Below are positions 2,329-61,002 of a stretch of 64,000 nt of DNA, one piece after another (within the stretch, counting starts at the first letter, position 1; every line of letters starts with the position of its first letter). The position numbers and the translations under genes are program-made. The DNA lies in IMG/VR virus record IMGVR_UViG_3300037067_011978; one strand, written 5' to 3'. Source of the stretch: an uncultured virus (IMG/VR IMGVR_UViG_3300037067_011978) (lineage: Duplodnaviria; Heunggongvirae; Uroviricota; Caudoviricetes). Under the pieces are notes generated by a model, which saw nothing but the letters and a program-made list of their open reading frames with translations, did not search any database and was not told the DNA's origin.

Positions 2329-2334
2329 TTTTTT

Positions 2335-2718: not shown

Positions 2719-2722
2719 TTTT

Positions 2723-4568: not shown

Positions 4569-4714
4569 CTGCTTTCCTCCCATTTAGTTAACATTTCTAT
4601 ATATTTTTTATTATCATCTTTTAATATTTCGTTTTCTTTTTTCATTTCATAAATTTTAATATTTAAATCAACGATCATTTTAATGAAATATTCCATTAAA
4701 TCGTTATCTTTCAT

Positions 4715-7486: not shown

Positions 7487-7714
7487 CTAATCTCCGCGAA
7501 TACAATGTTATTATCTATTTTAATAGGTAAACCAAGCAATCTTCCTACAACTCCTTTATCAAAAACTTCATTACTTTTTGTTATACAAAAATCACATGCC
7601 ATTAATTCTGAATAAGTTTCGTCATTTAAATAAAAACATTTATTTTTTAAATCAAGATTCATTTCTCTTTCACTTAGAAGTAAATAAAGAAGTATTTCTA
7701 AAACAGGCTTCTTT

Positions 7715-13054: not shown

Positions 13055-13945
13055 TCATTTTTCCTCCTTTTCCTCACATAAAAATCTAATCATCTTTACA
13101 GTATCCTTTGACAGTTTCTTGTTTGCCAATAACCCATTTTCTATATTTTCTAAAAAATCCAAATTGACAGATTCATTATTCCTTAACTTCTCCACGAAAG
13201 CCGATATCCTATTTTCTTTTTCGTCTCGCTCTATTATATATGAATCATCAATTATTTTTTCATCATCAGGGATAAAAATTTGTTCAATCGTTCCTTTATC
13301 AGTATCCACATAATAGATAGAAGACGAATATTCCTTTTCATCGACCGATCCGCGATACATTGCGCCAGGATTGCAAACTGTCCTTCCTTTTCTTTCATAA
13401 ATAAAACTCCTATGCATATCTCCGGTAAATATCCATTTTGCATTAGGGTATTCATTTAACAAATCATTAGCGGTAACGGCATTTACATTAGGCGGAATAG
13501 TCTTGCTATTCTCAAATGTCAATCTATGAATAAATAATAGTCCTGTTTCCTTGCCTTTCAATTCCTCATTGAAATGTGCATATTTCCCTATATCATCAAA
13601 ATACTGTATCCGCTTATCACCACTTTTTACTATCTTATCAATTATTCCAAATGACGATTCTGCCATATTATCTATATTGTGATAAAGGAGTGAATGATTA
13701 CCTGCCAATATCCTTATACCAGCATTTACAGAAAAAGCAAACTCTAAAAACATTGAAACAATAATACTTGGTACTCTGGCAGTATCAAAGATATCACCTA
13801 GATCGAATACTGGACATTTTCTTTTATTCGCTTCATCGGCAATAAATTGTAATAATCTTTTTTGTGTTCCTAGCCAATCTTCATCTTGACGACATCTTGG
13901 AAGGAGAAGCGTAAGATGCTTATCGCTTGAAGCTATGAATTTCAT
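13055..13945 (-). CDS. SbcD/Mre11 (gp47-like) nuclease
   Basis: SDKH, GDIFD, GNH, GDMH and NPG metallophosphoesterase motifs. Confidence 0.88.
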   Translation of the reverse strand: MKFIASSDKHLTLLLPRCRQDEDWLGTQKRLLQFIADEANKRKCPVFDLGDIFDTARVPSIIVSMFLEFAFSVNAGIRILAGNHSLLYHNIDNMAESSFGIIDKIVKSGDKRIQYFDDIGKYAHFNEELKGKETGLLFIHRLTFENSKTIPPNVNAVTANDLLNEYPNAKWIFTGDMHRSFIYERKGRTVCNPGAMYRGSVDEKEYSSSIYYVDTDKGTIEQIFIPDDEKIIDDSYIIERDEKENRISAFVEKLRNNESVNLDFLENIENGLLANKKLSKDTVKMIRFLCEEKEEK

Positions 13946-14509
13946 TTATCTTTTTATTCCAAAATCACATTTTCTAATTTTGCACATTCTTCCTTGCCCA
14001 GTTTTATCGTGGAATACTATTCCTTCAATATCTAATTCAGGATCAGAAAAATATTTTCTTAATCCTTCAAATGATAAATCAGTAATATTTAATTTTTCTA
14101 TTCCATGTTTAATTAATTCATGCCCATTTATACACTCTGGATTGCCTTGTACTTTTTCTCCACATAATTCATAAGTATTATCTCCCCATTTTTCTTTTTT
14201 ATCAAAAGCTTGAAAAGCCCATCTATCTTGAGGATTATTTCTATCACATTTAATCCAGTGGGGCCAATGTCCAGTTATAGAATCAGGGTCATCGCAAGGT
14301 ATAGCACCTTCAGGAGGGACTTTCCCTTTTTTACAATCATAACGTCTATATAATTCACCATTAATTATTGCCATTGCAGTCCCGTCAAATTTTCTAGTCG
14401 GAATACCAAACTCAAAAACCCAACTATTTTCTTCATTTATTATATTAATAACCTTGCTTAAATCATTTGGATCTTTTTTATAAAGTGTAGACATCTTTTT
14501 CATTTGCAT
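13946..14509 (-). CDS. RNA-ligase-like nucleotidyltransferase (DUF5565-like)
   Basis: RKFDGT (KxDG), YELCG, EGIVF, terminal K.R..DFG. Confidence 0.7.
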   Translation of the reverse strand: MQMKKMSTLYKKDPNDLSKVINIINEENSWVFEFGIPTRKFDGTAMAIINGELYRRYDCKKGKVPPEGAIPCDDPDSITGHWPHWIKCDRNNPQDRWAFQAFDKKEKWGDNTYELCGEKVQGNPECINGHELIKHGIEKLNITDLSFEGLRKYFSDPELDIEGIVFHDKTGQGRMCKIRKCDFGIKR

Positions 14510-15591
14510 TTATCTCCTTTTAATGGTTTATTGCACATTGGGCACATTGAAGGTAATTCTTTTTCTAATTCTATAATCTGTACTTCACAAGCTTCTTTTT
14601 CCATATATTTAGCTAAATATTGTTCATTGCTTTCTTTCAATTCCTCATATTCATTTTCTTTTGTTTCTATCTTATCATTCAATTCATCTATCTGCTTTAT
14701 CAACTTCTCTGCATTAGAAAAATCCGCCATCCCTATAATCTGATTTTGTTCTAGATACTCTTCATACAGATTTTGTAATCGCTCATATTTTTCAATTTTT
14801 TCTTCTAGCGATTCCTGTATTAAATCTATTTTATTTATGATAGGGATGGCTGATAGAATAACCTCCTGCTCTTGAATAATAAGCATAGAACTTTCATAAG
14901 CGTCTTTTTGAAACTCTAGTTTTTCTTTTATTTCATTATTGCTTTCAATCCTATTTTCTATCTTCACAATCCTATCAATCAATATTTCAGCATCTTCTAG
15001 CCAATCAAACTTCGCTATTTCATTGTTTATGATATCTTGTTCAATTTCTAATTTCTTTTTATCTTTATTTGTTTCTAGCCTTTTGCTATCTGCCTTTGAC
15101 AATATTCTATCAATTAAATCTAACCTAATTGTTGAATTGAAAAACCTAGCCACTTCTCCCGCGCTATTTGACAATAAAAAGCTAGGATCAAATTGCCCTT
15201 GGAAATTAACTTCATCTAGATTAAACATTTTAGTAACTATATCAGGAACAGAAGTGCCAACAGCTTCTAAATAATTCCCATCGACTATATATCCATTAAA
15301 CTTTTTACTTTCATCTGAAACTTTTACTTTACCTTTCCTTCGCTCAATTATTCCTTTATCTGTAGTGATTCTTACAAATGTTGATTTTATTGACTCTTCA
15401 TTATCATCTTTATTCCAATCAGAAATATCGGCATTGCCTAAAGGACGATTATTTATTGCCCAATATAAAGCACGTAGGATCGCGGTTTTCCCTGAATCAG
15501 AAATCCCAACAATTGAGTTGATTCCATTAGAAAATGAGATATTTGTCTTTTTGTGAGATTGGAAATTTTGAATAGATAATTCGTTAAACAT
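14500..15591 (-). CDS. SbcC/Rad50 (gp46-like) N-terminal half
   Basis: IQNFQSH, Walker A GISDSGKT, Q-loop NFQGQFD, coiled coil ending in CPMC zinc hook. Confidence 0.88.
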   Translation of the reverse strand: MFNELSIQNFQSHKKTNISFSNGINSIVGISDSGKTAILRALYWAINNRPLGNADISDWNKDDNEESIKSTFVRITTDKGIIERRKGKVKVSDESKKFNGYIVDGNYLEAVGTSVPDIVTKMFNLDEVNFQGQFDPSFLLSNSAGEVARFFNSTIRLDLIDRILSKADSKRLETNKDKKKLEIEQDIINNEIAKFDWLEDAEILIDRIVKIENRIESNNEIKEKLEFQKDAYESSMLIIQEQEVILSAIPIINKIDLIQESLEEKIEKYERLQNLYEEYLEQNQIIGMADFSNAEKLIKQIDELNDKIETKENEYEELKESNEQYLAKYMEKEACEVQIIELEKELPSMCPMCNKPLKGDKCK

Positions 15592-25868: not shown

Positions 25869-26400
25869 AAAATAAATGCGAATATCTTATTTGGGAAGAT
25901 AAGACAGATTATAAGTGTTTAATAGGAGAATCAATAATCCCATATAAGGGTATGATTGGAAGATTGCGAGAATGTGGAGAAGAAGGTAAAGAATATTCTG
26001 TTTATAAAAAGATGAAGAAAGGAAAACCAGAAGGAGCAAAACACAATGTTTGCCTTTGTGAAAAACATTATGAATTGGTTTTAGATAATACTGTAAAGAT
26101 TAAGGAGGAAATATGAAACTATTTGGGTATGAAATCACTATTAAGAAAATACAAAGTTATAAAACTCCTATTGAAAAAGCAAAGGAAGTTATAATAAAAT
26201 ATTACAATGAAAACAAAAATTACTTTAATTGTGGTTCAGATATAGAAATATCAAATAGAAAAATAGAATTAATTAAAATGGCAAGAAGTAATTTAGGAAT
26301 AGACAAAAACGGCATTTGTCTTTTAGGATTAAAAGAATTAAAAGAATTAGTTGAAAGCATGTTTGATTCTAAAATAAAATTTCTAGAATAGTAAATAATT

Positions 26401-26474
26401 GGACCGTTAGCTCAGTTGGCTAGAGCAACACACTTTTAATGTGTAGGTTATTGGTTCGATTCCAATACGGTTCA
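26401..26474 (+). tRNA. tRNA-Lys(UUU)
   Basis: Cloverleaf: GGACCGT/ACGGTTC acceptor, ACACA-CTTTTAA-TGTGT anticodon arm, GTTCGATTC T-loop; no encoded CCA. Confidence 0.93.
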
Positions 26475-26482
26475 AGTTTCTT

Positions 26483-26556
26483 GGCTCCGTAGTCCAACTG
26501 GCAGTGACAAGGGACTTAAAATCCCTCAAGTATGGGTTCGAATCCCATCGGAGCTA
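26483..26556 (+). tRNA. tRNA-Leu(UAA) with short variable loop
   Basis: GGCTCCG/CGGAGCT acceptor, AGGGA-CTTAAAA-TCCCT anticodon arm, GTTCGAATC T-loop, discriminator A. Confidence 0.88.
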
Positions 26557-27501
26557 GTAAGTTTTATTTAGGAGGAAATTATGGATTTTGATAACGAAGA
26601 TAATGAATTGGATAATCTTTTAATGAATATGAATATGGGATTGCTTCCTGAGAATCTTTGTCAATCTGAAATAGAATTATTAGAACAAAAATATGGCAAT
26701 AATTGGTTTGAAAAATTAGGCTATTCCGAACCTAAATACAAGAAGCCATTAAATGCCTAAGCAAAAAAGAAAATCTCCCGTATGGCGATGGGCATTAGAA
26801 AATGACAAGGTGATGCCAGTATTTTATTCCGAAAAGGAAGAGTATAAGGATATTAAGACCTGGAAAAATATCAATGACGTTCCAATTAGGAGGAAAAAAT
26901 GAATCCAGATACCAAGGACGTTTATGAAGAAAATAAAGAATTAAAGGAAATTGTAAGTGAACTACAAAGGGAATTATCAATAGCTAAAAATAAAATTGCT
27001 GATCTTACATACGCAATTATGGGGCATTCTTTAAGTTATTAGGAGGAACTATGAAGAACAGTAAGCAAGAACAAATGTTTTATAATGTAGCAAAACAATA
27101 TGTATTAAAACAGGATTATCTATCAGGCGAAAAGGATGAAGGTGAAATTGAATTATTGAATGAAGAAATCAGGATTCTTTCAGGGAAAATAAAACATTAT
27201 CTTTTCAAACTATGGAAAGAACAAAAGATCATTATTGTTTGGGATAAGGAGGAAGTGAAATGAATAGCAGATATTTTGATAATGATTTATTTGAGAATTT
27301 AGTCAATCAGGTTTGTCAAAAGGAAACTAGAATACTTGGCGGGATATTAATAGGCCCGTCAGATAATAATGATTATATAGAAATGTGGGAAAGGCTTTTA
27401 ACAGAAAAGAAAAAGGAAATAAAGGATATGGAAATTGCGATCAGCCTATTAAAATTGGCTAATGAGTTAAAAGTAAAATATGTAGATTCAGAAGAAGACA
27501 A

Positions 27502-36446: not shown

Positions 36447-37877
36447 TTGACGCGAGAGAAAATAAAAATTGATAGTGAAGTTTCTATCCTCATAAATTGC
36501 ATAACCAATGATAGATTTTTGCAAGAAATGATTCCTATAATAAGGCCAAATTATTTTAAACTTGGTTATTCAAAAGTTATTTATAAATGGATAAAGGAAT
36601 ATTGGGAAGCATATTCTTGTGCTCCAAAAAAATATATTACAAATATTTATAAACAAAAATATGCTTTGTTAAAAGAAGATTCAGATGAAAATGATGAAAT
36701 TAAATTATTCTTAACTAACTTATCAAAAAAATATGAAGAATATTCTGATAATAATAACATTAAACCATTAATAGATGAAGCTGAAAATTATTTAGGTATT
36801 AGATCAGGTGAAGTATTAAAAGAACAAATTGAAGATGCATTGTTATCTAACGATAAGAAAAAACTTGAAACTGTTATAGCTAATTATAAAAGAGTAGAAA
36901 AACCAACTGGTGAAGGTATCGATCTTTTACATGACCATACAAAAATATTAGAAGCATTGACAAAAGAACATAATGAAATAATTGTTTTCCCTGGTGCAGT
37001 AGGAAAAATAATTCCACCTATTTGTCGTGGCGATTTTATGTCATTTTTTGGACCAGCTAAGCGTGGAAAAAGTTTTTGGCTTTGGTATACAGCCGAAGTA
37101 GCAATGGGACAAGGATGTAAAGTTATTTATATCCCATTAGAAATGAACGATACTGCAATAATAAAAAGGAGTTGGCCATCAATAACAGGTAAGCCATTAT
37201 TTAATAGGATAGTGCATTCAGCACATTTTGAAGAAGATGGAGAGAAGTTTTCAATAATTCAAGATGAAAAAGAAATGGAAGGTTTCAATTTAGAATCAAT
37301 TGAAGATATGCAGAAAAAATTAAGGAGACTTTATAGAAAAGGTAGAATAAAAATAATTCCTATGGTAGGGGCTACGTGCAAAAAGATTGAATCAATTTGT
37401 GATAATCTATATTATTATGAAAATTTTGTACCTGATGCAATAGTTATTGATTATGCTGATTATATGGAAACAGAAGGAAAATATACAGATAACAGAGATA
37501 AGATAAACAAGATATGGAAAGGAGTAAGAGATTTTGGAAATGAACGAAATATTGCAATGATAACCGCGAGCCATACGGAAAAGAAAACTTTCAACGAGGA
37601 TATAAAGACTTCGCAGGCATCAGAGGACATAAGAAAAATAAACCATGTAACATTGGCAGTGAGCTTGAATGCCACTGATAAAGAAAATGAAAATAATATA
37701 ATTAGGTTAGGAATGATGGAGATTAGGGAAGGCAGGCATATATCAGATCAAGCCGTAGTATTGCAATGCCTGGATTTAGGTAGGCCATGCATAGATAGTA
37801 AGATGAAGAAGGAAGTCAATGGGTATAATAATTCGGAAGAAAAAAAGCAGTATCGAAGAAAAAATGTTGAAAGATAA
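36447..37877 (+). CDS. dnaB: replicative DNA helicase, DnaB-like
   Basis: Walker A GPAKRGKS, LEM, IVIDYAD, TASH; 476 aa. Confidence 0.85.
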   Translation: MTREKIKIDSEVSILINCITNDRFLQEMIPIIRPNYFKLGYSKVIYKWIKEYWEAYSCAPKKYITNIYKQKYALLKEDSDENDEIKLFLTNLSKKYEEYSDNNNIKPLIDEAENYLGIRSGEVLKEQIEDALLSNDKKKLETVIANYKRVEKPTGEGIDLLHDHTKILEALTKEHNEIIVFPGAVGKIIPPICRGDFMSFFGPAKRGKSFWLWYTAEVAMGQGCKVIYIPLEMNDTAIIKRSWPSITGKPLFNRIVHSAHFEEDGEKFSIIQDEKEMEGFNLESIEDMQKKLRRLYRKGRIKIIPMVGATCKKIESICDNLYYYENFVPDAIVIDYADYMETEGKYTDNRDKINKIWKGVRDFGNERNIAMITASHTEKKTFNEDIKTSQASEDIRKINHVTLAVSLNATDKENENNIIRLGMMEIREGRHISDQAVVLQCLDLGRPCIDSKMKKEVNGYNNSEEKKQYRRKNVER

Positions 37878-37895: not shown

Positions 37896-39284
37896 ATGAA
37901 AATAAACAAACTTATTGAAAGAGAAGTGACTTTTGAATGTGTTCCAAGTGTCATTGGCTCTGGTTATGAAGTGCAAGTAGCGGATTTGGCTTTGCGTGAT
38001 GGTGTAGCATATCGAGCCGCTAGAAAAAATATGCAGATTCATTCCGCTATTATCCTAAAGATAGATGGAAAGTTTAGCGGATTTTTTACGTTCCAAATAA
38101 ACCATGAAGTTGGCGAATTTTGCCTATTACAATCAGCAATGGAATTAGACAGGAAAGACAAGGAAATATATAAGGATATGTTACGTGAGATAATCAAGCA
38201 AAATACATTTGGCTATCCAATGATTATGACGGTTAGCACAAAACATGATCTTGAAAGACCAGATGTATTAGAAGCCGTTGGATTCAAAACATATCTTAAT
38301 TTAAGTGGATTTGCCTATATGGTTTACGGAACTATGGAACAGGTCAGGATGAAGCGACTTGCACATGCTACCATGACAAATACTTGGACTTCTACCAAGG
38401 CTGATTGGTTGAAAATGAAACATGAATGGAACGATAAAATAGAGGCTATGGGCAAAAAGTATAATATCAAAAATCCTAAGTTTGCTTCGCGTGATGGTTG
38501 TTGGCAAGGTAAACAGGGAATGGCTAATATCGTAATGGCTTCACAGAAAATAGTAGATGGAAAGATAAAAAATAAAACTGATAAAACATTGAATGGGAAC
38601 GCATCGGTACTCGATCCTGTAGCTTGCGAAGTTATATTAAGATTTTTCATGCCTACAAATGGTAAGCGGGTTTATAATCCTTTTGGTGGTGGTGTTCAAT
38701 TTGGATTTGTTGCAGGATCATATGGGTATAAATATATATCAAGTGAAATTAGGCAAAATCAATGCGATGCTAACAATGCATTGTGCCAGGATTTCAAGAA
38801 TGTAAAATGGATAAAAAGTGATAGTTCAAAATACATTCCTAAAAATAAAGTTGATTTAGTTTTTTCATGTCCACCATATTACCAGGTGGAAGAGTATTTA
38901 GATTATGATGGAAAATCTCCAGAAGGCGAATTGAATAAAATACCTACTTATGAACAATTCAGGGATACACTTTTTGAAGGATATAAAAAAGCAATAAGTG
39001 TATTAAATAATAATTGTTTTGTAATAATAATGACTGGAGATTCAAGAAATAAAGATGGCGCTTATTATGGTTGTGAAGCCGAGCATGAATTATTTTTTAG
39101 AGAACAAGGATTGCACATCTATAACAAGATAATTTATTTGGAATGTGAGTTTACTAGATTGGCGCAAGCCAAGGTTACATTGAATTATAGAAAGTTCCCT
39201 AAGCGTGAACAGAAAATATTGGTTTTTTACAAAGGAGATATAAAGAAAATATCAGAATTATATCCTAAAATAGGCAGGCTATAG
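37896..39284 (+). CDS. DNA amino-methyltransferase with N-terminal GNAT-like domain
   Basis: VYNPFGGG (motif I) and FSCPPY (motif IV); first ~145 aa show a GNAT-like pattern (IILKIDGKFSGFFTF...CLLQSAM...LEAVGF). Confidence 0.75.
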   Translation: MKINKLIEREVTFECVPSVIGSGYEVQVADLALRDGVAYRAARKNMQIHSAIILKIDGKFSGFFTFQINHEVGEFCLLQSAMELDRKDKEIYKDMLREIIKQNTFGYPMIMTVSTKHDLERPDVLEAVGFKTYLNLSGFAYMVYGTMEQVRMKRLAHATMTNTWTSTKADWLKMKHEWNDKIEAMGKKYNIKNPKFASRDGCWQGKQGMANIVMASQKIVDGKIKNKTDKTLNGNASVLDPVACEVILRFFMPTNGKRVYNPFGGGVQFGFVAGSYGYKYISSEIRQNQCDANNALCQDFKNVKWIKSDSSKYIPKNKVDLVFSCPPYYQVEEYLDYDGKSPEGELNKIPTYEQFRDTLFEGYKKAISVLNNNCFVIIMTGDSRNKDGAYYGCEAEHELFFREQGLHIYNKIIYLECEFTRLAQAKVTLNYRKFPKREQKILVFYKGDIKKISELYPKIGRL

Positions 39285-40195
39285 TGGAACGATTCAAGGA
39301 TAAAATAACATTGATTGAAAATAATCGTGGTTGTTTTATCCTTGATACTATTAAAGGATGTAGTGGCTGCAATGAAAAAAGGCCACGGGGATGCTATGAT
39401 GATTGCTATGCAAAAAATATAACTTCAAGATATAAGCAGATAGATTTCACCATTCCTGTAAAAAGAATGTTCATTGAGAATAAATCAAAATATGCCTTAT
39501 TTGATTTCGATGATACTAGGCACATAAAAGAAATAATTGGCAAGATAGAAAAAATAAATATGCCATTTGTTAGAATTGGGGAAATGGGAGATCCTTCTGA
39601 AGATTGGGAACACACAATAAATATTTGTAAGCAAATTTCAATTACTAATAAATATATAGTAATTATAACTAAGCACTGGAAAATAATTAACAACAAATTA
39701 TTGGATAAATTAAAATCAAATTCAAATTCAAATATTTGTATTAATACTTCTATATCCGCACTTGATACAGAAAGGGAAATTGAATATCGATTAAAACAAT
39801 ATAATAGATTGAAGGAATTATGTAATTCAGTATTAAGGATTGTAACTTGTGACTTCAATATTAAAAATAAAGAAGGCAATGTTAGAAACAAAATACAAAA
39901 TGAGTTATTGTCAATTCCTAATCATATAGATACAATATTCAGGCCAAGTAATAATAATCCATTGGTCATTAATAAAATCATAAATGTTAATAATGTAAAA
40001 TTCTTGAAAAAGGAAGTGCTGGCGAGTATGCATGATAAAAATGCTTATCTAGGATTTTGTAATACTTGTCCTGATATGTGCGGGATTCCAATTGAATTGA
40101 AGGAAAGTTATTACAAGCAAACCGTGGAGAACCTGAAAATTGCTAATAAGAAAAAAGGTATGTCATTGATCGGGCAATCATTATTTATAGAATAA
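39284..40195 (+). CDS. radical-SAM-like Fe-S protein
   Basis: KGCSGC...GCYDDCYAK Cys cluster, VRIGEMGDPS, IITKHW, terminal CNTCPDMCG. Confidence 0.6.
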   Translation: MERFKDKITLIENNRGCFILDTIKGCSGCNEKRPRGCYDDCYAKNITSRYKQIDFTIPVKRMFIENKSKYALFDFDDTRHIKEIIGKIEKINMPFVRIGEMGDPSEDWEHTINICKQISITNKYIVIITKHWKIINNKLLDKLKSNSNSNICINTSISALDTEREIEYRLKQYNRLKELCNSVLRIVTCDFNIKNKEGNVRNKIQNELLSIPNHIDTIFRPSNNNPLVINKIINVNNVKFLKKEVLASMHDKNAYLGFCNTCPDMCGIPIELKESYYKQTVENLKIANKKKGMSLIGQSLFIE

Positions 40196-40207: not shown

Positions 40208-40225
40208 TGAAAGATAGTGTATAAT
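40208..40225 (+). promoter_or_regulatory. AAAGAT-class promoter
   Basis: TGAAAGATAGTGTATAAT(ATAG). Confidence 0.7.
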
Positions 40226-40425
40226 ATAGATATGGAAACTTCATACAAGCAATTTTTCTTCGATCTTAGGGGCAAATTGTTGACTGGTCAAGTAACCTAT
40301 GATGAAGCAATAAAGATTGTACAGCCTGTATTAGATGAGATGAACAAGAAAGGCGAATTGATAGCTAAGAAGTATGATAGAAAATATAGAAAAGTAAGTT
40401 ATATTACTGTATTAAAAGGATAAAA

Positions 40426-41358
40426 ATGGACAAAGTATTAGTAACTGGTGGGGCTGGATTTATAGGCAGTCATTTATGTAAAAAACTAATTGACCAAGGG
40501 AATATTGTCTATTGTTTAGATAACCTATTTACAGGAAATAAAAAAAATATAAAAGAACTTCTTGACAACCCCAAATTTTCTTTTCTGGAATATAATATAA
40601 TCGTGCCATGTGATTTGGATGTCAATAAGGTATATAACCTGGCTTGTCCTGCTAGTCCTATTCATTATCAGTTATTCCCTGTAGAAACCTTAAAGACAAG
40701 TATTCTTGGATCTATAAATATGCTTGATTTGGCGAATAAGAATAAAGCCAGAATTCTACAAACATCGACTTCTGAAATATATGGTAACCCATTTGTTCAT
40801 CCTCAAAAAGAAGATTATTGGGGGAATGTAAATCCGATTGGTGTTCGTTCTTGCTATGATGAAGGAAAACGTTGTGCCGAGACATTATTTTTTGATTATA
40901 ATAGACAATATGGGACAGATATTAGAGTTGTAAGGATATTCAATACTTATGGTCCTAACATGAATATTAATGATGGCAGGGTTGTAAGTAATTTCATAAT
41001 TCAAGCCTTAACAAACGAGGATATAACGATTTATGGTAGTGGATTACAAACAAGGTCTTTTTGTTATATAGATGATATGATAGATGCTTTGCTATTGATG
41101 ATGGGTAATGATTTTATTGGCCCTATAAATCTCGGAAATGAGAATGAATTTACAATTATTGAATTGGCAGAGTTGGTGTTATCTATAACTAATAGTAAAT
41201 CTAAGATAACATTTAATGAACTTCCACAGGATGATCCTAAACAGCGAAAACCAGATATAAGTCTTGCTAAGAACAAGCTGGGATGGGGACCAAAAATTCA
41301 ATTGAAAGAAGGATTGATAAAAACCATAGAATATTTTGAGGAACAATTATGCAAATAG
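40426..41358 (+). CDS. uxs: UDP-glucuronate decarboxylase (UDP-xylose synthase)
   Basis: [68 protein letters not shown]. Confidence 0.93.
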
Positions 41359-42659
41359 CGGTTATAGGAACTGGATATGTTGGCTTGGTTACTGGAGCAT
41401 GTTTTGCTGAATTGGGAAATATTGTTACTTGTATTGATATAGATAAACAAAAAATAGATAATCTAAAAAATGGAATTATTCCAATTTATGAACCAGGATT
41501 ATCAGAACTTGTAAAAAGGAATATAGAAGAAAATAGATTGATATTTTCTACAGAATATTCAGATATAAATAATTCAGAAGTTATTTTTATAGCTGTAGGG
41601 ACTCCATCAAATGAAGATGGTTCGGCCGATCTTAAATATATTAAATCTGTAAGCAGGTCAATTGGTAAATATATAAATGGATACAAAATAATAGTAAATA
41701 AATCCACGGTTCCTGTTGGAACATATAAATTGGTAAAAAATATAATAAATGAAGAGATAGAAAATAGAAAGGCTTTTATTGTATTCGATATTGTATCAAA
41801 CCCAGAATTTTTAAGAGAAGGAACTGCAATAAATGATTTTATGAGACCAGATAGAATAGTTATTGGGTGTAGTAATAGTGTATCTGAAAATGCAATGAGA
41901 AAATTATATGAACCTTTTATAAAAAATCAACATCCATTTATTGTTATGGATAATATTTCTGCAGAGTTGACAAAATATGCTGCTAATACAATGTTAGCAA
42001 CTAGAATCAGTTTTATGAATGAATTAGCAAATCTATGTTCTAAAGTTGATGGTAATATTGATAATGTTCGTTTAGGTATTGGAAGTGATTCAAGGATAGG
42101 ATTGCCGTTTTTATATTCAGGTATCGGCTATGGTGGATCCTGTTTCCCAAAGGATGTCAAGGAACTTATTAATTTTGGGAATAAAAATGGAATCGATATG
42201 AGTATAGCCAAGGCAGTTGAGGATATAAACTATAACCAAAAAAGAATACTATTGAAAATGATAAAAGACAGATTTGGGAATGATTTAAGCAATAAGACCT
42301 TTGCTATTTGGGGGTTATCATTTAATCCACAAACAGATGACATACGGGAATCTCCATCATTAGTTATAATTCAAGGTTTACTTGATATTGGAGCTTCTAT
42401 ACAAGTATATGATCCAGAAGCCATGGAAAACACCAAACAAATATTTGGAAATTCTGTAAAATACATATATAATATGTATGATGTATGTAAAGATTGTAAT
42501 TGCTTGTTATTGCTTACAGCTTGGAAACAATTTAGGCAACCAGATTTTTCTCTTATTAAAAACAATTTAAAAGAACCAATTATTTTTGATGGCAGGAATC
42601 AATATAAATTAGAAGATATGAATGAACTTAGTTTTGAATATCATAGCATAGGACGATAA
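41349..42659 (+). CDS. ugd: UDP-glucose 6-dehydrogenase
   Basis: [48 protein letters not shown]. Confidence 0.95.
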
Positions 42660-42660
42660 T

Positions 42661-42933
42661 GTGAAAAAGAAATTTGTAAAGAAAAATGCTTTATTGGAAA
42701 TCGAAGATAATGAAGAGTGGAGAGAACATTGGAAGGGGATGCCAGAATTTTCCCATAAGGATATTACTCCATATTTTTCCATAAAGATACATTTCAATAC
42801 GAAAGAAAGCATAAAGCAATTTTCAGAATTGGTTGGGCAAAATATTACTGAAAATACCAACTCTATTTGGTATCCAAAACAGAAAATCACCCATGTTGCA
42901 AATAAAAGATATATAGATGAATCAGAAGTATAA
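42661..42933 (+). CDS. small protein coupled to the glycosyltransferase
   Basis: WKGMPEF...LVGQNIT..T.SIWYP; overlaps the glycosyltransferase start. Confidence 0.6.
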   Translation: MKKKFVKKNALLEIEDNEEWREHWKGMPEFSHKDITPYFSIKIHFNTKESIKQFSELVGQNITENTNSIWYPKQKITHVANKRYIDESEV

Positions 42934-43783
42934 ACCAAAGTATCCGATTTATATTATCTCTAAAGGAAGGGCTGATACTGGATTAACATATAAATTCTTG
43001 GAGGAAATGAACCAACCTTATCATATAGTCATAGAGAAACAGGAATATAAACAATATAGGAAATATATAGATAAAGAAAAAATATTAGTATTACCTTTTA
43101 GCAATTTAGGACAAGGTGGGATTCCAGCAAGAAATTGGGTATGGGAACATGCAATTGCTACTGGGTCTTTTCGTCATTGGATTATGGATGATAATATAGA
43201 TGGATTTTGGCGATCAAATCATAATAGAAGGGTAAGGGTAAGGACACCGGCATTATTCAGATGCCATGAGGATTTTATAGATAGATATGAAAATGTTGCT
43301 ATGTCTGGACTTAATTATTATATGTTTTGTCCGGATAAAGTTATAAAACCACCATACGAATTGAATACAAGGATTTATTCATGTATTCTTTTACGAAATG
43401 ATCTTCCTTATCGATGGAGAGGAAGATATAATGAAGACACTGATTTATCAATTAGAATATTAAAAGATGGTTGGTGTACTATATTATTCATGGCAATGCT
43501 AGCTAAGAAAATGCCTACCATGACTATGAAAGGTGGGAATACAGAAGATTTATATGAAATAGAAAATGGAAGATTATTAATGGCTCAGTCACTTGAAGAA
43601 CAGCATCCAGATATAGTTACTATTACTAGGAAATGGGATAGATGGCAACATCAAGTTGATTATTCTAAATTCAAAAATAATAAATTGATATTAAAGAAAG
43701 ATGTAAAAATTCCAGATGGCATAAATAACTATGGAATGAGATTAATCAAATGGGATAAGGAGAAAAATTGTGCTATTAGATGA
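42917..43783 (+). CDS. GREB1/TAGT-like GT-A glycosyltransferase (DNA-base glycosyltransferase family)
   Basis: YPIYIISKGR, ARNWVWEHA, HWIMDDNI, RIYSCIL, YNEDTDLS, KGGNT, WQHQVDY. Confidence 0.8.
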   Translation: MNQKYKPKYPIYIISKGRADTGLTYKFLEEMNQPYHIVIEKQEYKQYRKYIDKEKILVLPFSNLGQGGIPARNWVWEHAIATGSFRHWIMDDNIDGFWRSNHNRRVRVRTPALFRCHEDFIDRYENVAMSGLNYYMFCPDKVIKPPYELNTRIYSCILLRNDLPYRWRGRYNEDTDLSIRILKDGWCTILFMAMLAKKMPTMTMKGGNTEDLYEIENGRLLMAQSLEEQHPDIVTITRKWDRWQHQVDYSKFKNNKLILKKDVKIPDGINNYGMRLIKWDKEKNCAIR

Positions 43784-44585
43784 AGATAGAAATAAATCAT
43801 TTGAAAATTTTTTAATTAGGTGTAGTAAATATCGCAATATAAATGTGGATTTAATTAGAAATATTTTTAATACTACAATAAAATATTTGTTTGCTAATAA
43901 AGAAAAAAGACAAGAATTAAAACTAAACCAAAATCTTGAAAATAGATGGTATAAAGAATTAGATACTGGTAATATAGATTATTCTGTTTATGATACAGAT
44001 GAATATATAGCGGAGCTTTGGGCTTGTTGGATAGTATATTCAAAAAAATATTTACTTTCGATTCAAAAGGAATCATCATTCCCACCGTATGGGATAGTTA
44101 ATAATTTTGGAAAAGTTAAAAAAATAGTTGATTTGGGATGTGGTTTTGGCTATACTACGTTAGCATTAAAACAAATATTCCCTAATGCGGAAGTTTATGG
44201 AACTAACATAGAAAATACAATACAAATTAAATTTGCTAAACAACTTGGTAAAGAAAATAATTTTAATATAGTTAGTAATATTAAAGAGATAAAAGGTAAA
44301 ACCGATCTAGTATTTGCTAGTGAATATTTTGAACATATTTTAGAACCAATTAAGGATTTACATAAAATAGTCAAATATTTAGAACCAAGAAATTTTCTTA
44401 TTGCTAATGCTTTTGGAACAAGAGCTATAGGACATTTTATAAATTATTTATATAATGAGAATGAAATAGACGGGGAATTAATTTCTAGATTATTTAATAA
44501 GGAACTAAAAGAATTTGGATATGAAAAAGTAAAAACAAAACTATGGAATAATAGACCAGCATACTATAAACTAAAGGAGAAATAA
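43770..44585 (+). CDS. class I SAM-dependent methyltransferase
   Basis: IVDLGCGFG; DLVFASEYFEHI..P. Confidence 0.85.
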   Translation: MLLDEDRNKSFENFLIRCSKYRNINVDLIRNIFNTTIKYLFANKEKRQELKLNQNLENRWYKELDTGNIDYSVYDTDEYIAELWACWIVYSKKYLLSIQKESSFPPYGIVNNFGKVKKIVDLGCGFGYTTLALKQIFPNAEVYGTNIENTIQIKFAKQLGKENNFNIVSNIKEIKGKTDLVFASEYFEHILEPIKDLHKIVKYLEPRNFLIANAFGTRAIGHFINYLYNENEIDGELISRLFNKELKEFGYEKVKTKLWNNRPAYYKLKEK

Positions 44586-45664
44586 TGCAACTAAACAAAA
44601 ACGAATTCTTATCCGCAATGAAAAAGGCAATGCCTGGCGTCGAAAGTTCCAATACCATCCTGCAAGGTGCGGATACTTATATTTTTCATAACGGGTATAT
44701 CTATACCTATAATGACGCCATCAGCGTATCTGTACATTTTCCAATCACCAATAAAGCTGGCGAGAATATTTCAGCAGCCATCAAGGCAAAGGATTTTTAT
44801 GATCTGATTTCCCGCTATGAAGGCGATTCACTTACCATCATTCCTAAAAATGATATGTGGATCATCAAGTCAGAAAACGCTAGGGCAGAAATTACGTTAC
44901 TAGAAAATAATCTCATCGAGCGAATCGAAGGCATAAAGATCGATCCTAAGCAATTCAAGAAAATTCCTGATAGGTTCATGGAAGGAATGGCAATATGCAA
45001 TTTTTCTTCTAAGTCACAATTATCAGGATTATTCTGCTCAGATCAGGTTATGGTATCTGCTGATGAGCTGAAGATTAATTGGTATGGATTGAATGATGCT
45101 TTTACTACTAGTTTCTGGATTACCAATGATGCCGTTAATAACCTATTGAAGTTAAATGAAATTACCAAATACCATGTATCTGATTCATGGGTTCATTTTA
45201 TGACTAAGGATAAAACCATTTTTTCCTGCAAGCGATTAGTCCAGGATAAGTACCCGTTTGATAAAATAAATGAGTTGGTTGATAGTCATAAAAAGGTAAA
45301 AGAAGATATTTCAAATGAATTGCCAAATAAGCTGATTGACGCGGTGAATAGGGCGGCGGCGCTAAGCACCAATATTGAAAGTTTCGATACAGTGAAATTG
45401 ACATTCACCCCAGAGATGATAGAAGTATTTGCGCAAAGGCCAAGTGGCAAGTATACAGAAAATGTTCCATGGGAAAAGCCATTTAAGAAGGAATTTGATC
45501 CAATCAGCATTTTCGTTGATTACCAAATGATAGAGAATGGGATAAAATATAGTAAGAGCTTTTATTTACATAATACTTTGGTAAATGAAAAAAATAGGAC
45601 CAGAGTTATTTTCGTATCAGAGTTTGGAATCCAGCTTATTTCTACTTTTGATGGAGGAGAATAA
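44585..45664 (+). CDS. DNA polymerase III beta-clamp-like protein
   Basis: 359 aa; N-terminal LNKNEFLSAMKKA...ILQG; KYP..; LIDAVNRAA; lies just before dnaE. Confidence 0.7.
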   Translation: MQLNKNEFLSAMKKAMPGVESSNTILQGADTYIFHNGYIYTYNDAISVSVHFPITNKAGENISAAIKAKDFYDLISRYEGDSLTIIPKNDMWIIKSENARAEITLLENNLIERIEGIKIDPKQFKKIPDRFMEGMAICNFSSKSQLSGLFCSDQVMVSADELKINWYGLNDAFTTSFWITNDAVNNLLKLNEITKYHVSDSWVHFMTKDKTIFSCKRLVQDKYPFDKINELVDSHKKVKEDISNELPNKLIDAVNRAAALSTNIESFDTVKLTFTPEMIEVFAQRPSGKYTENVPWEKPFKKEFDPISIFVDYQMIENGIKYSKSFYLHNTLVNEKNRTRVIFVSEFGIQLISTFDGGE

Positions 45665-45882: not shown

Positions 45883-48609
45883 ATGAATAATTTTATCCAT
45901 CTACATTGCCACAATGAATATTCTCTCCTTGATGGATTCGGAACATCTAGTAATTACGCAAAAAAGATTATAGAAAATAATCAATTAGGCATGGCACTGA
46001 CAAATCACGCTAATGTAGATGGCAATATAAAATTTCAAAATGAGTTTATCAAAAATAATTTAATCCCTATTCATGGCGTAGAATTTTATATAGTTAATAA
46101 TATTTCAGAGCATCCAAAAGGTGAGAAGCGAAGTCATTTACTGGCATTAGTAAAAAATGAAATTGGCTGGACAAATATTTTACAAATGCTTACTATTGCT
46201 AATTTAGACGGGCAATATTATCGCCCTCGCATTTCTCCAGAAATATTATTAGAGCATTGCGAAGGGCTAATTATTTCAACTGCTTGTTCTTCATCATTTA
46301 TAAAAGAAAAATGGGGAAGGAAACTATTAAAGGATTTATACAATAAAATTGGGAATGATTTATATACAGAAGTAATGCCTTTCAATATGCAAGATCAAAT
46401 AGAAGTAAATGAATTATCAATTAAATATGCAAATGCTTTAGGATTAAAAACAATAGCCACTAACGATTGCCACTATATCAATAAAGACGACGCGCAAGCC
46501 CAAGAAGTATTATTAGCTATTCAAACAAAAAAACGATGGAATGATTCTGACAGATGGAAGTTTCAAGTTGACGGATTATATGCAAAAAATTATGATGAAA
46601 TGTTTTTAGCATTTAAGAAGCAAAAGCAATTTAATAATAAGCAAATAGAAGAGTATTTGGATAATACTTTAGAAGTATTTGAGAAGTGCAAGGATTTTCG
46701 TATTCCAGAAAGAAAAGTTGCTTTGCCAAAAACACCAGAACTAAAAGAATATAATGGTACGGCAGAAGAATTATTATGGGAAAAATGTTTAGTAGGATTT
46801 GAAAAAATAACGGAAAATAAATCAGTATATAAAAAACGCCTTAACGATGAAATGAAGTTAATAGTTAGTCAAGGATTTTGTGAATATTTTCTAATTGTTG
46901 AAGAAGTGATTAGATGGTGCAAAGAAAATAATATAATGACAGGGCCAGGGCGAGGAAGCGCGGGTGGTTCATTAGTTTGCTATTTATTAGATATTACTAA
47001 AATTGATCCAATTAGATTTGATTTATTATTCTCGCGCTTTATTTCTCCTGATCGTATAGACCTTCCTGATATTGATAATGACTTCCAAGATAATAAGAGG
47101 CAATTGGTTATAGAACATTTCAAGGAAATATATGGCGAAAATCACGTTGCTTGCGTTTCTACTTTTATGTCGATGAAAGGCAAAGGCGCTTTACGAGATG
47201 TTTCAAGGGTATTTGATATTCCATTAAATGAGGTAAATGAAGCATCTAAAAATATAGATGAAGGTGAGGATGAAGATTCAGAAAGTGAAAGTATTATTGG
47301 TCAATTAAACAATACTTCTGATGGGAAATTATTCATAAAAAAATATCCTACTGTCTATAAAATGGCATCTAAACTTGAAAATCAGATTCGCGGGAAAGGA
47401 ATGCACGCCGCCGCAGTAGTAATTTCAAAAGACAATCTAAGGAATGGTGACAAGGTATATTTACAGAAAACTCCGAATAAGAATAAAAATGATATAGTAG
47501 TAAATTGGGATAAATATGATATTGAATATGAAGGTTTGATGAAGTTAGATATTCTAGGGATAAACGCGCTAACAGTATTGAATGAAGCTAGGGAACTGAT
47601 AAAAATAAATACTGGGGAAGATATTGTATATGAGGATATTGATTTGAACGATCCTAAAATATTCAAAGAATTTTCAAAAGGTAATAATGATGGAGTTTTT
47701 CAATTTGGTACTTATGGACTAAAAAAACTTTGTAAGGAAATGGGAATAGAAACATTTATGCATTTATCAGATGCCAATGCATTGTGTAGACCTGGAACCG
47801 CCCATTCAGGATTAACCGATTTATATATTCAAAGAAAGCATGGACAAAAAATACCTAAGCAAGATTCGATAATTGAAAAAATAACTAAGAATACATTTGG
47901 AATTATTTTATATCAAGAGCAACTAATGCAGATAGTAAACGAAGTGGCAGGGCTTGATTGGAAAATAGCAGATAAAGTTAGAAAGGTTGTAGCAAAAAGT
48001 AAAGGAAGTGAAGAGTTTCTAAAATTCAAAAAGACATTTGCAAGCGGTTGCGTAAAGAATAATACATTAAGTAAAATAGAAGCCGAAAAATTATGGGATG
48101 AATTGGCGGCATTTGGTTCATACTCGTTCAATAAATCACATTCTGTTGCTTATTCTGTAATTTCGTACTGGGATATGTTCATTAAATTATATTACCCTAC
48201 AGAGTTTATTTGCGCTTCATTAACTTGTGGAAGTAAAACTGGCAAGCAAAGTTTAATTGAAGATGCTTTGAAAAAAGATATTGATATTAGACCGCCTAAA
48301 ATTGGAAAATCAGATAGCCACAAATGGATAGTAAAAAATGATGTTATGTATTGTCCATTTATTGAGGTAAAAGGATTTGGCGATGGATCGGCTAAGGAGG
48401 CAATGAATAAGAAAAATAAAGTTTCTACTAATCAAGGATTTTTTGATTTAGGAGAAAATATTGGCAATGGCAAGAAAACAAAAGTTGAACAAATATTATC
48501 AGATATAGATGCATATAAAGATGTTACGATTACTTCAAGCCAAGATAACAAGATAAAAGATTATTTTGATTTTAGATTCAAATTAGTGGAAAGGAGTAGA
48601 TATGATTGA
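45883..48609 (+). CDS. dnaE: DNA polymerase III alpha subunit (C-terminally short)
   Basis: PHP HLHCHNEYSLLDG, GPGRGSAGGSLV, PDIDND, HAAAVV, KLDILG, YSFNKSHSVAY. Confidence 0.95.
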   Translation: MNNFIHLHCHNEYSLLDGFGTSSNYAKKIIENNQLGMALTNHANVDGNIKFQNEFIKNNLIPIHGVEFYIVNNISEHPKGEKRSHLLALVKNEIGWTNILQMLTIANLDGQYYRPRISPEILLEHCEGLIISTACSSSFIKEKWGRKLLKDLYNKIGNDLYTEVMPFNMQDQIEVNELSIKYANALGLKTIATNDCHYINKDDAQAQEVLLAIQTKKRWNDSDRWKFQVDGLYAKNYDEMFLAFKKQKQFNNKQIEEYLDNTLEVFEKCKDFRIPERKVALPKTPELKEYNGTAEELLWEKCLVGFEKITENKSVYKKRLNDEMKLIVSQGFCEYFLIVEEVIRWCKENNIMTGPGRGSAGGSLVCYLLDITKIDPIRFDLLFSRFISPDRIDLPDIDNDFQDNKRQLVIEHFKEIYGENHVACVSTFMSMKGKGALRDVSRVFDIPLNEVNEASKNIDEGEDEDSESESIIGQLNNTSDGKLFIKKYPTVYKMASKLENQIRGKGMHAAAVVISKDNLRNGDKVYLQKTPNKNKNDIVVNWDKYDIEYEGLMKLDILGINALTVLNEARELIKINTGEDIVYEDIDLNDPKIFKEFSKGNNDGVFQFGTYGLKKLCKEMGIETFMHLSDANALCRPGTAHSGLTDLYIQRKHGQKIPKQDSIIEKITKNTFGIILYQEQLMQIVNEVAGLDWKIADKVRKVVAKSKGSEEFLKFKKTFASGCVKNNTLSKIEAEKLWDELAAFGSYSFNKSHSVAYSVISYWDMFIKLYYPTEFICASLTCGSKTGKQSLIEDALKKDIDIRPPKIGKSDSHKWIVKNDVMYCPFIEVKGFGDGSAKEAMNKKNKVSTNQGFFDLGENIGNGKKTKVEQILSDIDAYKDVTITSSQDNKIKDYFDFRFKLVERSRYD

Positions 48610-49496: not shown

Positions 49497-49778
49497 ATGA
49501 TTGATAAATTAAAAATTGAAAAACGATGTATTAAGATACGAGGAAAAGAATGGTGTTTGAAAAAATTAGCCGAGGAATGTTCAGAATTAAGCGCTGCTAT
49601 ATTGCAATATTTAACCAAAGAAGCATCTGAAATAAACATATTGAAAGAAAGTGCTGATGTAGAAATAGCCATAAGGATAATAAAATTGATATATAACAAT
49701 AGTTTAATAGAGTATAAAGAAAAGAAATATTTAAGGATTGATAAAAAATGTTCAGAGTTGGAAAATGCTGATTCCTGA
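49497..49778 (+). CDS. MazG-like nucleotide pyrophosphohydrolase
   Basis: KLAEECSEL...ESADV acidic motif. Confidence 0.65.
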   Translation: MIDKLKIEKRCIKIRGKEWCLKKLAEECSELSAAILQYLTKEASEINILKESADVEIAIRIIKLIYNNSLIEYKEKKYLRIDKKCSELENADS

Positions 49779-60609: not shown

Positions 60610-61002
60610 ATGAAATTAGAAAAAGTCTATCAAAAATTGATTGATACTCTTTCGCCTACCATTGATTCTACAAAAAAGTATTGGGTAATAGCCGCATCCT
60701 TGGATCATCATAATAATATCATTTCGATAGGCGAAAATAGCTACCAGAAAACTCATCCCATGCAAAGTCGTTTAGCAATAAAAACAGGGAATAGAACAAA
60801 AGAATATCTACATGCTGAAATTGCTTCATTAGTAAAAAACAATAAAAAGCCTGAAAGTATTGTTATAATAAGAATGATAAATAACGGTAAAGTGAAAATG
60901 GCCAAACCGTGTCAAGTATGTATGCTAGCGATAAAAGAAGCAAAGATAAAGTATATTTATTATACAAATGATAATTCTGAAATTATTAAGGAGAAAATAT
61001 GA
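60610..61002 (+). CDS. CMP/dCMP-type zinc deaminase
   Basis: LHAEIA...AKPCQVC. Confidence 0.8.
   Translation: MKLEKVYQKLIDTLSPTIDSTKKYWVIAASLDHHNNIISIGENSYQKTHPMQSRLAIKTGNRTKEYLHAEIASLVKNNKKPESIVIIRMINNGKVKMAKPCQVCMLAIKEAKIKYIYYTNDNSEIIKEKI

Follow-up and report, generated by a model that had tools for sequence, protein, structure and literature searches.

Enzymes of the radical S-adenosylmethionine (SAM) class that install modifications on DNA are almost unknown. The sole precedent that we found is gp53 of Pseudomonas phage M6, a glycinyl-thymine isomerase that resembles spore photoproduct lyase (SPL), acts on DNA bases and is described, in the accessible part of the report, as the first radical SAM enzyme to install a DNA modification (PMC8989533). 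For tRNA, the accessible part of another report describes how Elp3 binds acetyl-coenzyme A (acetyl-CoA) on its GNAT domain and converts it, by its radical SAM domain, to a carbon radical, which then attacks C5 of uridine; it also presents Mom of phage Mu as a GNAT-fold, iron-dependent enzyme that makes N6-carbamoylmethyl-adenine in DNA, and for which a radical, Elp3-like mechanism is discussed (PMC7261163). Here we analyse two overlapping genes of an uncultured virus (Caudoviricetes; IMG/VR record IMGVR_UViG_3300037067_011978), carried on a stretch of 64,000 nucleotides that was analysed as a whole and is called the window below. The first gene encodes a fusion of a GNAT-fold domain with a SAM-dependent methyltransferase domain and the second, hereafter the partner, encodes a cysteine-rich protein with a predicted radical SAM fold; their features are collected in Table 1. 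We propose that fusion and partner probably form a DNA hypermodification module, that is, one enzyme system that would place a mark larger than a methyl group on the phage's own DNA, with escape from host nucleases as its likely purpose. By kind it would belong with the phage DNA hypermodification enzymes, with a real chance of new chemistry, and no published description of the gene pair was found in the open papers searched.

Firstly, the pairing of the two genes is beyond chance and makes them an obligate module. A scan of 2.9 million viral contigs was carried out, from which 80 loci were kept with the partner as seed and 80 with the fusion as seed. The fusion gene lies directly upstream of the partner in 80/80 partner-seeded loci. 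In the fusion-seeded set, a partner of the window type follows the fusion in 57 loci and a canonical radical SAM gene follows it in 12, the partner stands upstream in 8 and in 3 no partner was detected; an adjacent partner of the radical SAM family is thus found in 77/80, and each of the remaining three loci is truncated on one side, less than 900 bases away. The partner of related loci starts a few bases or less past the end of the fusion gene, at times overlapping it. In the window, the stop of the fusion and the start of the partner have one base in common within TAGTG, exactly as a preliminary description of this DNA had read it, and an overlap of this kind suggests that translation of the two genes is coupled. 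Six of the eight loci with an upstream partner turned out to be single open reading frames (ORFs) of 727-751 residues with the order radical SAM-GNAT-methyltransferase, an order also found in two further proteins, P0144 (748 residues) and P0244 (746 residues). The genes adjoin, stop and start overlap, partners of either type can fill one slot and gene fusion has recurred; together these facts show that the two proteins work together, and the coupling asserted in the preliminary description is borne out by these locus counts, the overlap and the fusions.

The module is widespread among uncultured phages and is conserved. Homologues of the fusion number 2341, the best 120 of them at 78-95% identity, and those of the partner number 659 (about 266 residues, none with a functional annotation). 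Copies of the fusion on viral contigs with differing flanking genes are 65-85% identical, and the partners are 40-62% identical with invariant motif residues, which points to strong purifying selection on the module. Metagenomic proteins that belong to it number in the hundreds, and the viral contigs that carry it come from a wide variety of metagenome samples; a scan of 185,579 cellular species genomes located it on two 8-kb contigs of metagenome-assembled genomes only, and no cultured phage with the pair was found. Most carriers are small phage contigs in which the pair stands among NinG, RusA, helicase and terminase genes and no glycosyltransferase was found.

Secondly, the fusion protein combines two enzyme folds. 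Its homologue-based AlphaFold2 model (predicted local distance difference test, pLDDT, 82.8; predicted template modelling score, pTM, 0.81) consists of two domains, and its fold was compared by VIA-align, with the 50 best matches listed. In this comparison residues ~10-146 of the model align with the N-acetyltransferases Naa30 (7l1k) and Ard1 (4r3k) at Z 15.0, with a root-mean-square deviation (rmsd) of 2.2-2.3 over 130-131 residues, and GNAT enzymes, covering residues ~9-146, make up about half of the 50 listed matches. Taken by itself, the window domain has no Pfam match, even with E values up to 10 allowed, and its relatives number 70 among 1.84 billion representative proteins, nearly all of them fragments or full copies of the same fusion. 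A metagenomic protein of the same architecture, P0299 (444 residues), is 31% identical to the window domain (E 2.5e-7) and stands above the Pfam GNAT cutoffs (Acetyltransf_7, 39.3 bits vs 27; Acetyltransf_1, 37.7 vs 20.7), which points, by transitive homology, to a GNAT origin of the window domain. The N-terminal GNAT-like domain named in the preliminary description is thus upheld by the fold of the model and by homology through P0299. P0299 represents a divergent fusion subfamily, with a canonical GNAT motif A and without an insertion of ~25 residues between the linker helix and the methyltransferase core. In an alignment of 34 fusion sequences the GNAT domain ranks among the best conserved parts of the protein.

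The rest of the fusion (residues ~155-448) has the class I SAM methyltransferase fold in the model, as had been proposed from its FGGG and CPPY motifs, both of which are present in the translation at the sites claimed for them (Table 1). Among the matches listed, the best alignments are with aTrm11 (5e72; Z 16.9), Trm11 (6zxv; 16.4), TrmN (3tma; 16.1) and Trm14 (15.7), and PrmC (2b3t; 13.5) is aligned as well; we take all of these to belong to the (D/N)PPY group of amino-methyltransferases. The Pfam model N6_N4_Mtase (PF01555) gave 20.9 bits on the fusion, under its cutoff of 26.7, and the PHROG matches given in Table 1 are to families that carry no curated cutoffs. Amino-methyltransferases are marked by a motif I of the form FxGxG and a motif IV of the form (D/N/S)PP(Y/F/W). 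Across the 34 aligned sequences the fusion keeps motif I (NPFGGGVQ) and the acidic residue that follows strand 2, and its CPPY is invariant, with Cys at the place of the usual D/N/S of motif IV.

In cultured phages the relatives of this methyltransferase domain, at ~30-34% identity, are ParB-methyltransferase fusions: gp36 of phiFL3A ('DNA adenine methyltransferase') and proteins of Funu2 and P2559S. They have in common with the window fusion the methyltransferase clade, an FxGG motif I, the (S/T)CPPY motif and a niche near terminase, and they differ in carrying an N-terminal ParB domain instead of GNAT; none of the three phages checked has an annotated radical SAM gene next to them. Within this methyltransferase clade, GNAT and radical SAM travel together, and the ParB-bearing relatives have no annotated radical SAM neighbour. 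No entry among 50,697 phage records covered at least 80% of the fusion. The Cys of CPPY was considered as a mark of dependence on a radical SAM partner and was ruled out, since the partnerless ParB-methyltransferases have it too.

Thirdly, the predicted structure of the partner places it among the radical SAM proteins. The partner matches nothing in Pfam, PHROG, NCBIfam or the PDB sequences, and tblastn against the same 50,697 phage records gave no match. DUF5131 is matched weakly by 8 of 26 members of the partner family (best E 8.8e-4), and the ESM Atlas leads are GP88, Radical_SAM and DUF5131 clusters, with scores of 0.90-0.96. The model of the partner (pLDDT 84.9; pTM 0.81) was compared with 48,161 representative chains. 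Its top match is SPL (4fhc; Z 11.5, rmsd 4.1 over 219 residues), and the whole of ranks 1-42 is taken up by radical SAM enzymes or by proteins with their fold, with Z falling from 9.9 to 6.4 after SPL. Foldseek searches of PDB and of the BFVD viral models again returned mostly radical SAM proteins, as weak matches (BFVD E 5e-4 or worse). The model thus shows a partial triosephosphate isomerase (TIM)-barrel radical SAM fold of the SPL/PA0069-like branch, in a non-canonical form, and the radical-SAM-like nature that the preliminary description had given to the second protein is confirmed at the level of predicted fold.

The cysteines of the partner were counted over 191 distinct members of its family. 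C26 is kept in 190 of them, C37 and C41 in 191 each, and C259, C262 and C266 in 190 each; C180 (181/191), C189 (176/191), C17 (126/191) and C29 (91/191) are less well kept. The protein is Cys-rich, as the preliminary description had it, and the cluster implied there needs correction, given the poor conservation of C29. In the secondary structure of the model, the C-X10-C-X3-C triad of C26, C37 and C41 falls between strand 1 (residues 18-25) and helix 1 (residues 42-48), in the loop at which radical SAM enzymes bind their cluster. The C-terminal CX2CX3C is possibly a second metal or cluster site.

The canonical proteins that fill the partner slot in 12 of the 80 fusion-seeded loci provide a direct comparison. 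They have 278-298 residues, and the seven scanned all pass PF04055 (33.8-45.8 bits vs a cutoff of 29.5) and carry the motif GC..GCQHDCxYCYA, which contains the CX3CX2C of radical SAM enzymes. Their best NCBIfam matches are to the PA0069, 'mobile pair B', Rv2578c and SPL models, all far under the cutoffs; the canonical partner of locus L126, for example, scores 82.6 bits vs 360 for PA0069 and 39.7 vs 430 for Rv2578c, and the window partner has 0 NCBIfam matches. A comparison by hhalign of the window-type family with the canonical one gave E 8.3e-5 with a probability of 60.7%, over strands 2-4 only, and a joint alignment revealed motifs common to both: LDT..GC, CYA, (I/M)G.M.D, TK(H/S) and (T/S)S. 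Judged by these alignments, the two partner families are homologous. The Cys triad of the window-type partners aligns with the GC..GCQHDCKYCYAK segment of the canonical ones, which suggests that the window family deleted the middle Cys of CX3CX2C and kept the upstream Cys of GC, a correspondence that rests on one MAFFT alignment.

With the SPL/PA0069/Rv2578c proteins (the 'DNA repair photolyase' group) the partner therefore has several things in common: SPL is its best fold match, the canonical partners match the models of this group, and SPL acts on DNA. It differs from them in that CX3CX2C is replaced by C-X10-C-X3-C and that a CX2CX3C motif is added near the C-terminus. Phage M6 gp53 is likewise a phage-encoded, SPL-like radical SAM protein acting in DNA base hypermodification; in the accessible part of its description, however, it works in a pathway with a 5-hydroxymethyldeoxyuridine (5-hmdU) kinase, an amino-acid transferase and a pyridoxal phosphate (PLP) enzyme, and it has a canonical CX3CX2C, CTVGCAFC (PMC8989533). 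Those partner genes are absent here.

A further canonical protein stands outside these loci. In MT835521.1 (locus L146, 3309-4831), an SPL/PA0069-like radical SAM protein, 58.5% identical to the canonical partners, directly follows a methyltransferase-like ORF. The product of that ORF (210 residues) resembles a truncated C5-cytosine-methyltransferase (PF00145, 29.2 bits; motifs FAGTRS, SPDC and ENPVG) and has no GNAT domain. This looks like a second kind of pair between a radical SAM protein and a methyltransferase fold.

Fourthly, we examined which nucleic acid the module would act on. In the window, fusion and partner sit in the plus-strand replication block, and the genes that recur beside the module elsewhere are DUF6291, large terminase, primase-helicase, RusA, NinG, DnaB, ERF and RecT; phage genes for DNA modification usually reside in such a neighbourhood, where the early region ends. 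Only 2 of 60 related loci have a tRNA gene close to the module. Both proteins, moreover, often carry short peptides resembling the bacterial clamp-binding consensus QL(S/D)LF. Ahead of the GNAT domain, 103 of 184 distinct fusions have a Qxx[LMIV]F peptide, where shuffling of the N-termini would lead one to expect 5.5, and an [LMI]F dipeptide lies 10-24 residues ahead of that domain in 164/181, against 34.7 expected. As for the partner, 24 of the 33 long tails (>15 residues) end in Qxx[LMIF][FLI], KQLKLF for instance, against 1.1 expected from shuffles. The window fusion has no clamp-like peptide at its N-terminus, and the tail of the window partner ends in GQSLFIE. Such QxxLF-like peptides suggest an enzyme that would be tethered to the sliding clamp and act on newly replicated DNA. 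We take the target to be DNA rather than RNA because of the ParB-methyltransferase clade, the replication, recombination and terminase neighbours, the clamp-like peptides, the scarcity of nearby tRNA genes and the likeness to SPL, a DNA enzyme.

The best explanation of these observations as a whole is a hypermodification system, perhaps an Elp3-like one, which we hold tentatively and at a little under an even chance. Three catalytic folds would be combined in it: a GNAT domain, the usual handler of acyl-CoA, a base-flipping domain of the amino-methyltransferase type and a separate radical SAM iron-sulfur protein. In the proposed mechanism, the iron-sulfur partner would cleave SAM to give a 5'-deoxyadenosyl radical, and this radical would activate either the base itself or an acyl group carried on the GNAT domain. 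The flipped-out DNA base would sit in the methyltransferase domain, which would add a methyl group to it, and a methylated base of the acyl or carboxymethyl type would result. The DNA substrate, the binding of a cluster, the cleavage of SAM, the use of acyl-CoA, the chemistry and the product are all putative elements of this scheme.

Elp3 offers the closest functional analogy, because GNAT and radical SAM co-occur here, while the ParB-type methyltransferase clade is without radical SAM. Elp3, which makes 5-carboxymethyluridine and 5-carbamoylmethyluridine (cm5U/ncm5U) on tRNA, also joins a radical SAM domain to a GNAT-type acetyl-CoA domain, and the fused relatives of the window pair have the two in the same order, radical SAM then GNAT. 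In eukaryotes the Elp3 pathway is completed by a SAM methyltransferase, Trm9, and the methyltransferase domain built into the window fusion would be the counterpart of this step. The systems differ in that the window has two genes with GNAT-methyltransferase first, that its radical SAM part is SPL/PA0069-like and non-canonical, that its GNAT motif A is degenerate and that its target is probably DNA. Elp3-like chemistry specifically is possible, if on the unlikely side. In its fullest form, which we consider unlikely in its entirety, the idea would make the module the first case of Elongator-like chemistry carried out on DNA: an enzyme tethered to the clamp, in which a three-Cys radical SAM protein would make an acyl-CoA-derived carbon radical on the GNAT domain, a C-C bond would join this unit to the flipped-out base and the methyltransferase would methylate it into a (methoxy)carbonylmethyl-type base, with no need for oxygen or for a modified nucleotide precursor; in this phage, a TAGT enzyme would then add xylose or glucuronate without TET or a hydroxymethylase. 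According to the accessible part of PMC7261163, Mu Mom modifies DNA bases through a GNAT fold with an acetyl-CoA-derived two-carbon unit; its analogy to the window fusion is at the level of the fold only, as Mom consists of one domain and has neither a radical SAM partner nor a methyltransferase.

Several observations weigh against a radical-based hypermodification system of this type. The glycine-rich loop of motif A, YQGNKIGS in P0299, has become LDRKDKEIY in the window, and 33 of the 34 aligned sequences no longer have it. This motif, Q/R-x-x-G-x-G/A, forms the loop for the pyrophosphate of acyl-CoA; acyl-CoA binding in the window clade is therefore uncertain. The window partner has no CX3CX2C and matches neither PF04055 nor the NCBIfam radical SAM models, and it is only the fold and the conserved Cys residues that suggest the putative binding of a cluster and cleavage of SAM. 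Elp3 is absent from the 50 listed structural matches of either model. Among the matches listed, the nearest solved structures to the methyltransferase domain are tRNA N2-methylguanosine (m2G) methyltransferases, and in cultured phages the (S/T)CPPY methyltransferase clade works without radical SAM. Finally, the MT835521 pair means that the core may be radical SAM/methyltransferase-fold rather than radical SAM/GNAT.

The degenerate hallmark motifs of both GNAT and radical SAM in the window clade, together with the failure of the window N-domain and partner to match any family model, would also fit a plain methyltransferase, the alternative that survives best, although we find it rather improbable. 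The fusion would then make N6-methyladenine (m6A) or N4-methylcytosine (m4C), and the GNAT-like domain and the Cys-rich partner would be non-catalytic (DNA-binding, regulatory, or structural with Zn or Fe-S), like ParB; the ParB-methyltransferases with (S/T)CPPY do act alone in cultured phages. It is hard to reconcile with the fully canonical radical SAM protein that fills the same slot in 12/80 fusion-seeded loci and with the canonical GNAT motif kept by P0299. In addition, the conserved residues of the partner lie at the ends of strands, as is typical of the active sites of radical SAM enzymes, with the Cys triad kept in 190-191 of 191 members, and the GNAT domain is among the best conserved parts of the fusion, a pattern expected of catalysis and not of a scaffold.

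Another alternative, quite improbable in our estimation, is radical chemistry like that of RlmN/Cfr or following methylation, in which the Cys of CPPY or the methylated base would be the substrate of the radical SAM protein, leading to methylation of an sp2 carbon or to tailoring of the methyl group, with the GNAT domain acting later or never. Near-perfect co-occurrence of GNAT and partner would be left unexplained by it. Cys325 is indeed invariant at the motif IV position, beside the methyl group of SAM, but the CPPY Cys is also present in the ParB-methyltransferases without radical SAM and is therefore not tied to the partner. A close canonical partner is paired in MT835521 with a C5-methyltransferase-like protein, which has a catalytic-type PDC motif and no GNAT. 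This pair suggests that a radical SAM protein and a Cys-bearing methyltransferase fold are the core, yet it is a single example.

The preliminary description had also offered the pair as an oxygen-independent substitute for TET that would create the handle for glycosylation, and the window does lend itself to this idea. The pair lies 2.7 kb upstream of a gene of the TAGT family, reportedly defined by Iyer et al. in 2013, with uridine diphosphate (UDP)-sugar genes in between. As in the TET/JBP-TAGT systems of cytosine hypermodification, TAGT (PF20691) stands in the same gene block as a methyltransferase; unlike in those systems, no TET/JBP or C5-methyltransferase was found in the window ORFs, and the window methyltransferase is of the amino-methyltransferase type. 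TET/JBP (PF12851) was absent from the 59 window ORFs scanned with Pfam, no thymidylate synthase (TS)-like hydroxymethylase was found in the window ORFs, and TET/JBP and TS families were both absent from a 63.5-kb relative (G001). In this reading, the methyltransferase would methylate a base, the radical SAM protein would functionalise the methyl group without O2, by hydroxylation for example, and TAGT would glycosylate this handle with a sugar supplied by the adjacent UDP-sugar genes.

The co-occurrence with TAGT that this role implies was not borne out. Leaving the window aside, 52 related loci extend for 3 kb or more downstream; TAGT was found near the pair in one of them (L037) and UDP-sugar genes in none. 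L037 (10001-12840) is the only other lineage with the pair and TAGT. Its fusion is 58-72% identical, its TAGT is 46% identical to that of the window and follows the pair by ~1.2 kb, and the small ORF preceding TAGT is 36% identical to the window ORF at 42661-42933; its partner lacks C17 and keeps C26, C37 and C41, and there are no UDP-sugar genes within the locus. That a second lineage has TAGT and the same small ORF downstream of the pair speaks for a TET substitute, but with TAGT beside the pair in 1/52 loci and most carriers having no nearby glycosyltransferase, the function of the pair must be complete in itself. The module is therefore independent of glycosylation and substitution for TET is not its general role. 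The GNAT domain would moreover be left without a role, the ~26 kb of the 90-kb source contig that lie beyond the window could encode a hydroxymethylase, and TAGT-family enzymes also act on already glycosylated bases in T6-like phages, according to the accessible part of PMC13390438, so that TAGT need not use the product of the pair. We regard the TET substitute as quite improbable too. Of the two options in the preliminary description, the acyl/methyl base-modification module fits the GNAT, methyltransferase and radical SAM folds and their coupling, and a general TET substitute finds no support. In the window phage and in the L037 lineage, TAGT may extend the mark made by the module or may modify DNA in parallel.

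An RNA target, in the manner of an Elp3/Trm11-like tRNA modification (of wobble U34 in phage tRNA-Lys(UUU) and tRNA-Leu(UAA), for example, or of host tRNAs) that would tune translation or evade anticodon nucleases, is highly improbable: although Elp3 acts on tRNA (accessible part of PMC7261163), the methyltransferase domain is closest to the tRNA m2G enzymes Trm11, TrmN and Trm14 (Z 15.7-16.9, among the matches listed) and the window encodes two tRNAs, an RNA ligase and a phosphoesterase, the module has tRNA genes nearby in only 2/60 loci, is placed among replication, recombination and terminase genes, belongs by its methyltransferase to the clade of phage ParB-DNA methyltransferases, has in SPL a DNA enzyme as the nearest fold of its partner and often carries clamp-binding-like peptides on both proteins.

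The two tRNA genes of the window, tRNA-Lys(UUU) and tRNA-Leu(UAA), both with a wobble U, lie at 26400-26557. The RNA ligase (13946-14509; PHROG 14301, E 7e-61) is flanked by a metallophosphoesterase (13055-13945) and an AAA/SMC-like ATPase (14500-15591). The tRNAs and these three genes could be a tRNA repair or anticodon-nuclease counter-defence set.

The window is low in GC (27-37%) and phage-like, with two transcription arms that diverge at ~19.6 kb. The sugar block that directly follows the pair (40426-44585) predicts glycosylation of DNA with glucuronate or xylose, possibly methylated; we know of no case in which a TAGT enzyme transfers glucuronate or xylose to DNA. A second set of sugar-nucleotide genes is found on the minus strand (898-5041) and comprises an MptE-like/Maf-like gene (898-2328; PF01973), a CMP-sugar cytidylyltransferase (3828-4583; PF02348) and a phosphoheptose-isomerase-like gene (4715-5041; PHROG 1238); adjoining it, on the same strand, is a gene for a dCMP-deaminase-like protein of 237 residues (2723-3436). 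Two more ORFs, at 60610-61002 and 49497-49778, respectively resemble a dCMP deaminase, the second and smaller such protein of the window, and an NTP pyrophosphohydrolase (PHROG 2245). These two ORFs hint at manipulation of the pyrimidine pool, though no hydroxymethylase was seen among the window ORFs. Also on the minus strand (6087-8536), two ABC-permease-like ORFs (PF00528; 6087-6899 and 7715-8536) flank an ORF of 196 residues (6896-7486) that matches PHROG 799, 'DNA methyltransferase', with E 1.2e-36, an odd arrangement for a phage.

Table 1. Coordinates in the window of the fusion and partner genes, their domains and motifs, and the neighbouring genes.
Feature	Position	Strand	Basis
GNAT-fold/SAM-methyltransferase fusion gene, 462 aa ('XMT')	37896-39284	+	ORF; PHROG 12517 E 1.3e-41, PHROG 498 'DNA methyltransferase' E 8.8e-40
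GNAT-fold domain of fusion, residues ~10-146	37923-38333	+	structural alignment of model; acyl-CoA motif A degenerate
class I SAM methyltransferase core of fusion, residues ~236-448	38601-39239	+	structural alignment of model
motif I FGGG (SAM-binding glycine loop, NPFGGGVQ)	38682-38693	+	translation; F263, G264, G265, G266 invariant 34/34
motif IV CPPY	38868-38879	+	translation; C325, P326, P327, Y328 invariant 34/34
TAGTG: fusion stop TAG (39282-39284) / partner start GTG (39284-39286)	39282-39286	+	sequence ...GGC AGG CTA TAG TGG...; one base common
radical-SAM-fold partner gene, 303 aa, GTG start, Cys-rich	39284-40195	+	ORF; predicted structure
N-terminal Cys triad C26-X10-C37-X3-C41 of partner	39359-39406	+	translation CSGCNEKRPRGCYDDC
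C-terminal CX2CX3C of partner (C259, C262, C266)	40058-40081	+	translation CNTCPDMC
C-terminal tail end of partner, ...IGQSLFIE, lineage-specific, sliding-clamp-peptide-like	40172-40192	+	translation
DnaB-like helicase	36447-37877	+	family scans of ORFs
68-aa ORF	40217-40423	+	ORF
UDP-glucuronate-decarboxylase-like short-chain dehydrogenase/reductase (SDR)	40426-41358	+	Pfam Epimerase/GDP_Man_Dehyd E 1e-45; NCBIfam UDP-xylose-synthase-type matches
UDP-glucose 6-dehydrogenase	41349-42659	+	Pfam UDPG_MGDP_dh domains E 6e-70; NCBIfam TuaD 519 bits
90-aa ORF	42661-42933	+	ORF
TAGT-family DNA glycosyltransferase	42917-43783	+	Pfam PF20691 E 7e-51, 173.5 bits vs cutoff 27.5; PHROG 842
class I methyltransferase overlapping TAGT; 110-aa N-terminus unassigned	43770-44585	+	Methyltransf_31/23/11
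clamp-like protein	44585-45664	+	family scans of ORFs
Pol III alpha	45883-48609	+	family scans of ORFs

The C-X10-C-X3-C site of the window-type partners, found beside canonical paralogues in the same slot, is a natural experiment on how the cluster motif of radical SAM enzymes evolves. If the module makes a new base, it would represent a new two-gene route to hypermodified DNA, one that requires no oxygen and no altered nucleotide pool, and it would provide a compact means of producing DNA that resists restriction or bears a special tag. Were its chemistry of the Elp3 type, it would be the first example of this chemistry on DNA.

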